Shown here piece after piece: positions 5,335-5,454 of a stretch of DNA of 21,246 nucleotides. The number at the start of each line of letters is the position of its first letter. The first letter of the stretch is position 1. Position numbers and translations under genes: made by a program. The stretch is from Promethearchaeota archaeon. Its GTDB lineage: Archaea; Asgardarchaeota; Lokiarchaeia; Sigyniarchaeales; SOKP01. The stretch spans positions 1-21,246 of the forward strand of contig SHMW01000075.1 of assembly GCA_008080735.1 (NCBI GenBank). The letters run 5' to 3'. The notes under the pieces were generated by a model. That model did no database searches and was not told the DNA's origin. It saw only the letters and a program-made list of their open reading frames with translations.

Positions 5335-5454
5335 TTAACAGCCGCCGCCACATTTACAAATGCAACCGCCACCGCACTTACATGAAGAACTGACGCATCC
5401 ACCGCCACATTTGCATGCCGCGCTGGTTGTTTTTTCTTTCTTTACAATTTTCAT
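5335..5454 (-). CDS. Unannotated 39-aa Cys/Gly-rich peptide with 3x CKCGGGC; metallothionein-like or RiPP-precursor-like
   Basis: Manual translation MKIVKKEKTTSAACKCGGGCVSSSCKCGGGCICKCGGGC*, 9 Cys. The repeats are identical in protein but differ at synonymous codon positions. It is a GC-rich patch in an AT-rich spacer. Confidence 0.85.
   Translation of the reverse strand: MKIVKKEKTTSAACKCGGGCVSSSCKCGGGCICKCGGGC

Follow-up and report, generated by a model that had tools for sequence, protein, structure and literature searches.

The window analysed here, a 21,246-nt stretch of DNA from a Promethearchaeota archaeon, contains on its minus strand a 39-codon ORF that runs from an ATG to a TAA codon (Table 1). 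The encoded peptide has nine cysteines (23%) and no aromatic residues, in agreement with the original prediction for this DNA, which had left the strand out; its net charge is +6. It consists of a 13-residue Lys-rich leader followed by three CKCxxxC modules, which are identical in protein sequence and written with different codons, exactly as had been quoted. The six-frame CxCGGGC search that had been proposed returned three matches in the 4.1-Mb genome, all within this ORF. The GC content of the ORF is 47%, against 21-23% in its flanks.

Elsewhere in the window, positions 5-826 of the plus strand encode about ten tandem repeats (MDQRFE/MDKRFE units) in a long coiled coil, followed by a C-terminal domain, which presumably resembles a PD-(D/E)XK nuclease. 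A 72-aa ORF with W-x-x-x-GF/QF repeats (4271-4489, minus strand) has no family match in Pfam or NCBIfam, and a cluster of ESCRT-II (EAP30/Vps36, Vps25-type) and Vps4 genes occupies positions 18161-21062, at the contig end.

Table 1. Features of the precursor locus, its partner genes and the linked oxidoreductases. Plain coordinates are those of the window; prefixed coordinates are those of other contigs or loci, G000 being the source genome.
Feature	Position	Strand	Remarks
Precursor peptide gene, 39 aa, leader and three core modules	5335..5454	-	Synonymous-only divergence from the G006 copy
Leader, residues 1-13	5416..5454	-	Residues 1-11 modelled on the maturase RRE
Core module 1 (CKCGGGC)	5395..5415	-	Equivalent of the single bacterial module (consensus CKCKSSC)
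Core module 2 (CKCGGGC)	5362..5382	-	
Core module 3 (CKCGGGC)	5338..5358	-	C-terminal Cys is the end of the peptide
Archaeal-type TATA box TTTAAA (5511-5506), purine-rich BRE-like stretch upstream	5504..5519	-	Conserved position; putative function
Shine-Dalgarno-like TGAT, some 6-9 nt ahead of the start codon	5460..5463	-	Putative; recurrent in relatives
T7 tract 25 nt after the stop	5303..5309	-	Putative terminator; T run in relatives
mtnA	7355..8389	+	Synteny marker only
Maturase gene	G000:C3:121140-122420	-	Outside the window
Accessory gene	G000:C3:120839-121081	-	Outside the window, next to the maturase gene
FAD oxidoreductase of the linked type, source genome	L310:872-2443 (G000:C19)	-	
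FAD oxidoreductase, subfamily member	L030:814-2382		

The original prediction had argued for selection at the protein level, and this is borne out by the copy found in the related genome G006, which encodes an identical protein and differs by nine synonymous and no non-synonymous codon changes. The sequences upstream of the two copies match at 38 of 100 bases when compared without alignment. Likewise, the promoter and T-tract that had been thought plausible are predicted signals kept in position among relatives: TTTAAA is found at position -57 relative to the ATG, and 19 of the 23 copies examined have it between -52 and -60, while a run of 6 to 12 T follows 16 to 40 nts past the stop in all 23. 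A sigma-70 promoter scan of the window gave nothing above chance, with a model that is ill-suited to archaea. The very small size of the ORF and its lack of annotation could suggest that it is not a gene, or that it is a non-functional repeat. However, its synonymous-only divergence and the conservation of its promoter, terminator and partner genes leave this reading next to no credibility, and on comparative grounds the ORF is securely called a real gene. Selenocysteine read-through was considered and rejected, all Asgard copies examined stopping at TAA or TAG.

Residue 14 is the first Cys of almost every precursor copy, Asgard or bacterial. In G008, two precursor copies that differ by one leader residue are found on separate contigs (L003 = C124 and L021 = C275). 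The G027 copy (L040:428-583, minus strand; G027:C162) appears broken, a 30-nt insert being located between the Lys and Cys codons in each of its two modules. These inserts can be drawn as a canonical bulge-helix-bulge, with a 4-bp helix, two 3-nt bulges and a hairpin, and their excision at the canonical cut sites would restore an intact 32-aa two-module peptide. Among the five genomes searched, the insert is found only in that precursor copy. They are candidate tRNA-type introns within an mRNA.

No maturase is encoded in the window, as had been stated, and the alternative that the peptide is a RiPP precursor whose maturase lies elsewhere is strongly supported. In the source genome, a radical-SAM/SPASM maturase (B) and an accessory three-Cys protein (C) are encoded side by side and unlinked from the precursor (A), whereas in many relatives the maturase gene is adjacent to the peptide. 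The maturase is 47-55% identical to the orthologues of relatives. Close relatives of it are labelled Lokiarchaeota or Promethearchaeota in their sources, and together with the ESCRT-II and Vps4-type genes of the window they mark the host as an Asgard archaeon of Lokiarchaeia type. Within the family of this host, 15 of 36 genomes have precursor relatives, and the next gene often encodes a radical-SAM protein. At the level of the class (161 genomes), B is present in 28 genomes, C in the same 28 plus G005 (29 in total), and A in 25, all of which also encode B and C; the genomes being kin, these counts are not independent. In 12 of the 25 genomes, A and B are no more than 1 kb apart, and six others have both on one contig. 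No precursor was found without a maturase in any of the 161 genomes, and in three genomes (G003, G011 and G060) B and C are present and no A was found with the precursor queries used.

The position of the precursor in the window can be related to that of mtnA, located about 1.9 kb away. In G033, G008 and G015, a cassette comprising the peptide and then the maturase is divergent from mtnA, which suggests that the precursor kept its position in the source genome while its partners lie elsewhere. A T-rich TATA-like motif about 50 nts before the maturase start (L054; G000:C3:~122445-122480) recurs in relatives and suggests that the maturase may be transcribed from a promoter of its own, so that the cassette could be broken up. 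The dispersion is complete in G307, in which A, B and C are all present at distant positions of one contig (C4:842381, 938710 and 960332). A Tyr-rich 17-codon ORF preceding the maturase was discarded as a substrate because nine relatives did not show it in the upstream region. G005, which is 92% complete, carries an accessory gene alone (L292:6653-6883; G005:C4), with no maturase or precursor found. In G024 (L058/L036; G024:C38:66012-67600), the maturase frame is shifted within an A run close to the start, and the accessory gene carries a premature TGA as well as CA in place of CG; this indicates either a decaying system or an assembly error.

The maturase, of about 420 aa, comprises an N-terminal RRE-like domain, a radical-SAM barrel and a SPASM-type region, and conserves the CxxxCxxC motif as well as seven SPASM-type cysteines. 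Its predicted structure (pLDDT 89) begins with three strands and three helices, and SuiB, CteB, SkfB and TigE are the best matches in fold searches. Profile alignments to TigE, CteB and SuiB begin at position 22-24, inside the RRE, and among solved structures SkfB comes closest in sequence (E 3.5e-24). The Pfam SPASM model does not match the maturase, though its Cys pattern and fold fit, and Pfam PqqD does not match the RRE-like domain. None of the NCBIfam models reaches its cut-off with the family maturases; the best scores are those of NirJ/AhbD/ScmE-type enzymes, all far below cut-off. A, B and C occur together, in many cases side by side, and the architecture of B is that of RiPP maturases. 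The 39-aa ORF is very probably the precursor of a RiPP modified by this radical-SAM enzyme encoded elsewhere.

A predicted complex of the leader and the maturase is consistent with this assignment. The model reached a score of 0.69, whereas the best of three controls stayed at 0.00. The mark applied, which 58 of the 80 solved pairs and 2 of the 110 mismatched pairs attained, is rough here, own alignments having been used. Contacts agree between runs by at least 51%, and the pLDDT of the partner is at least 41. Leader residues 1-11 are placed on the third strand (30-35) and the last helix (65-76) of the RRE. Docking of the leader on a strand and a helix is the usual mode of RREs. The model thus predicts a likeness to known RRE-leader docking, with the reservation that complexes of CteB and SuiB with peptide were already solved, so that the predictor may have passed by reproducing known structures.

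The other reading offered by the original prediction was a eukaryote-style metallothionein, in which the unmodified peptide would bind Zn, Cu or Cd via its nine thiolates. Its size, its 23% of Cys, its CxC motifs and the absence of aromatics do resemble eukaryotic metallothioneins and bacterial SmtA in composition. In addition, a winged-helix regulator encoded upstream weakly matches ArsR/SmtB (NF033788, 30.7 bits for a cut-off of 55), and ZIP transporters are found near the system genes in three genomes: directly after the accessory gene in G307 and G308 (ZIP/ZupT; L297/L298) and 1.2 kb after the precursor in G006 (ZIP/ZupT; L001). However, this link to metals is sporadic. The proposed inspection of neighbours showed that the radical-SAM enzyme often adjoins the precursor, whereas no metal gene or metal-regulator context is conserved among 34 Asgard genomes and 126 other loci. 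The 39-aa peptide is matched by none of the metallothionein models in Pfam, and only one of 29 family members matches PF02068 (E 0.076); the precursors belong to no Pfam or NCBIfam family and the ESM Atlas gave no usable match for the peptide. Unlike metallothioneins, the peptides have a fixed 13-aa leader and a constant radical-SAM partner, never occur without the maturase in the class, and in their widespread single-module form contain only three Cys. An unmodified metallothionein is hence very improbable, and this claim was abandoned. The modified peptide may nonetheless bind metals.

The family extends well beyond the class. Other Asgard lineages and anaerobic bacteria encode the same trio with a one-module precursor of 20 aa, and full-length maturase orthologues are found in Nitrospirota, Thermodesulfobacteriota, Actinomycetota, Rokubacteria and one Methanobacteriota MAG. 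The bacterial orthologues share 26-37% identity, and most are adjacent to a CxCxxxC ORF of 20-21 aa with Cys at positions 14, 16 and 20. The association was also recovered starting from the peptide, with a DNA pattern that described the precursor only and required no stop, Shine-Dalgarno (SD) word or enzyme. At least 120 metagenome matches were obtained, and 108 of those listed stop at the last Cys or a single residue beyond it. Among the matches listed, 106 of these 108 precursor-like ORFs have an SD word and 77 have the maturase on the same stretch, 75 of them within 600 nts; on stretches extending at least 1.5 kb on both sides, the proportion is 28 of 35. The remaining 12 matches listed have no maturase on their stretch (0/12). 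On viral contigs, ten matches to the pattern were found, none of which is a precursor. The bacterial core has the consensus CKCKSSC, with Ser at position 19 in 90 of 94 distinct peptides, and most single-module precursors end exactly at Cys while some copies carry one more residue.

In a phylogenetic tree, the family maturases form a sharply bounded clade (support 99), within which the Asgard rows group with a support of 82 only. Every two- or three-module precursor that could be placed on the tree falls in one Asgard family clade (support 100), which also includes G010 with a single module. Based on this comparison, the core is multiplied to two or three modules in one Lokiarchaeia-type family.

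The nature of the modification was approached through six positions of the catalytic site taken from Precord et al. (PMC10288494), which are Y,T,L,S,G,F in the maturase studied here, Y,T/S,L/F,S,G,F across 111 family enzymes and Y,T,I,S,K,L in StsB (PMC10288494), the sactisynthase used for comparison with group 1. The same positions are Y,T,F,S,Q,L in SkfB and F,F,T,S,H,Q in CteB; the family site is therefore nearer to StsB and SkfB than to the ranthisynthase CteB, and position 5, mostly Gly in the family, matches none of the compared enzymes. SPASM enzymes that form no thioethers frequently have Y, T and S at these positions as well.

Sactipeptide systems (SkfA/SkfB, AlbA, StsA/StsB) resemble the trio by their RRE-radical SAM-SPASM/twitch maturase, small Cys-rich precursor and partly similar catalytic-site residues. 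CxC motifs are likewise present in the StsA core, and six unnamed sactipeptide groups were predicted (PMC10288494). However, the present system is distinguished by its CKCxxxC core repeated one to three times, its 13-aa leader, its extra three-Cys protein and the lack of an exporter, and its maturase falls below the cut-offs of the AlbA and StsB models (68/850 and 83/625 bits). Ranthipeptides (SCIFF/CteA-CteB, PapA-PapB) are alike in enzyme architecture, with CteB as a fold match, in their Lys-rich leader and Cys-rich core, and as a conserved small system without exporter. In contrast to these, the core here offers Gly rather than Asp/Thr, the catalytic-site residues of the maturase differ from those of CteB, and the PapB model scores at most 71/340 bits with the family maturases. 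The SCIFF-type precursor that had been envisaged also fails, because the peptide has no SCIFF model match and has neither the SCIFF Cys spacing nor the CX3D motif.

Other systems share fewer features. CrpA/CrpC of Methanococcus voltae (PMC13692751) is alike in its archaeal RRE-radical SAM-SPASM enzyme and repeated Cys motifs. CrpA, a large protein, contains ten C-X-X-Q/D repeats of 17 residues each, and CrpC is a member of TIGR04463 (PMC13692751), a model that is not among the best 25 matches listed for the family maturases. The ACGX-repeat (TIGR04340) and SbtM thio(seleno)oxazole (TIGR04082) systems similarly associate repeated small Cys-Gly motifs with a radical SAM/SPASM enzyme, whereas leader and motif differ here and the family maturases score at most 81.5/400 and 58.7/350, respectively. 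The system would thus work like sactipeptide and ranthipeptide systems while standing, by models and motifs, outside SCIFF, PapA, StsA, ACGX, SbtM and Crp. No account of the trio was found in the papers searched, and an entry in subscription radical-SAM RiPP atlases is possible. Similarly, no described RiPP pathway in Asgard archaea was found in the literature that could be searched.

The accessory protein (about 80 aa) has the pattern C-x2/3-C-x-F...C-G, in which C, C, F and CG are invariant. Some loci have it in doubled form and others as a fusion with the maturase, which ties it to this enzyme. It belongs to no Pfam or NCBIfam family, retrieves only unnamed clusters from the ESM Atlas, and its model gave nothing clear in fold searches (Foldseek E >6; best Z 3.6), which is not proof of a new fold. 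Other recurrent neighbours are clade-limited and consist of redox/Fe-S genes, namely NifU/NifS, glutaredoxin-like and rubrerythrin-like genes. One FAD oxidoreductase subfamily (CrtISO-like) adjoins the maturase in G001, G011, G014, G022 and G024, and is also found beside it at locus L069, in the Methanobacteriota MAG and in one bacterial clade. The subfamily occurs in 20 of the 161 class genomes, 16 of which have the maturase; a search at E 1e-60 did not detect it in 12 of the 28 genomes with the maturase. It is a possible optional fourth gene of the system, and like the redox/Fe-S neighbours is a lead only. The notion of a "metal/redox micro-island" around the precursor was dropped: a cytochrome b561-like gene follows the precursor only in G000 and G006, and the FAD enzyme of the window is about 24% identical to the linked subfamily.

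These neighbours bear on the possibility that B acts on a RiPP precursor by non-thioether Cys chemistry to yield a cofactor derived from the peptide, which the linked FAD oxidoreductase might use. Cys oxidation, a thiooxazole-like heterocycle, decarboxylation of the terminal Cys, or a Cys-Lys or C-C cross-link would be the options. The NirJ/AhbD/ScmE-type best scores (all far below cut-off), the many single-module peptides ending exactly at Cys and the frequent company of the FAD oxidoreductase and B are compatible with such a product. However, the internal modules of the triple form preclude a strictly C-terminal reaction, some copies extend one residue past the Cys, the FAD enzyme is missing from many B genomes at the threshold used, and the SbtM model is far from its cut-off. 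Non-thioether chemistry is accordingly held to be a minority possibility, if a substantial one.

A secreted sactipeptide-type antimicrobial or signal could likewise be proposed for a small, cationic, Cys-rich peptide of patchy distribution (the accessory gene is present in 36 of 400 genomes of the phylum). No exporter, protease, peptidase or immunity gene is conserved among the 34 Asgard genomes and the 126 other loci, and the core is strongly conserved across domains. In addition, the trio persists fully dispersed in G307, which is more housekeeping-like. A secreted product is hence unlikely.

The best overall explanation, which we consider probable, is a three-gene RRE-radical SAM-SPASM RiPP system made of A, B and C. 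In this system, A, with its basic 13-aa leader and one to three CKCxxxC modules, would be the substrate of B. Very likely, the RRE of B would bind the leader as an added beta strand and B would modify each module by radical chemistry. The chance that B makes thioether rings from Cys sulfur to carbon is put at about even; because the x-x-x residues of the modules here are all Gly and have no beta carbon, a sactionine (alpha-carbon) link would be the likeliest unless the conserved Lys is the acceptor. Somewhat more tentatively, C might hold an Fe-S cluster or a metal and serve B. The product could remain intracellular and serve as a redox module or as a ligand for metal/Fe-S, a role that has roughly even odds in our estimation and is favoured by the lack of a conserved exporter, protease or immunity gene.

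The precursor of this system is too small to be picked up by gene callers. The system itself is distributed over Asgard archaea and several phyla of anaerobic bacteria, its 20-aa core being nearly fixed, and includes a partner protein without known family or clear fold. Its identification removes a tempting but unsupported claim of a eukaryote-style metallothionein in Asgard archaea. With only three small genes, the system is directly testable in E. coli. A more far-reaching and rather doubtful proposal is that the trio produces an intracellular, cross-domain peptide-derived cofactor or metal/Fe-S carrier. It would imply new radical chemistry on CKCxxxC, a three-Cys protein acting as a new dedicated Fe-S partner, and a Lokiarchaeia form that is a multi-core, partly cross-linked metal-binding peptide. 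If true, this would be the first RiPP characterised from Asgard archaea.
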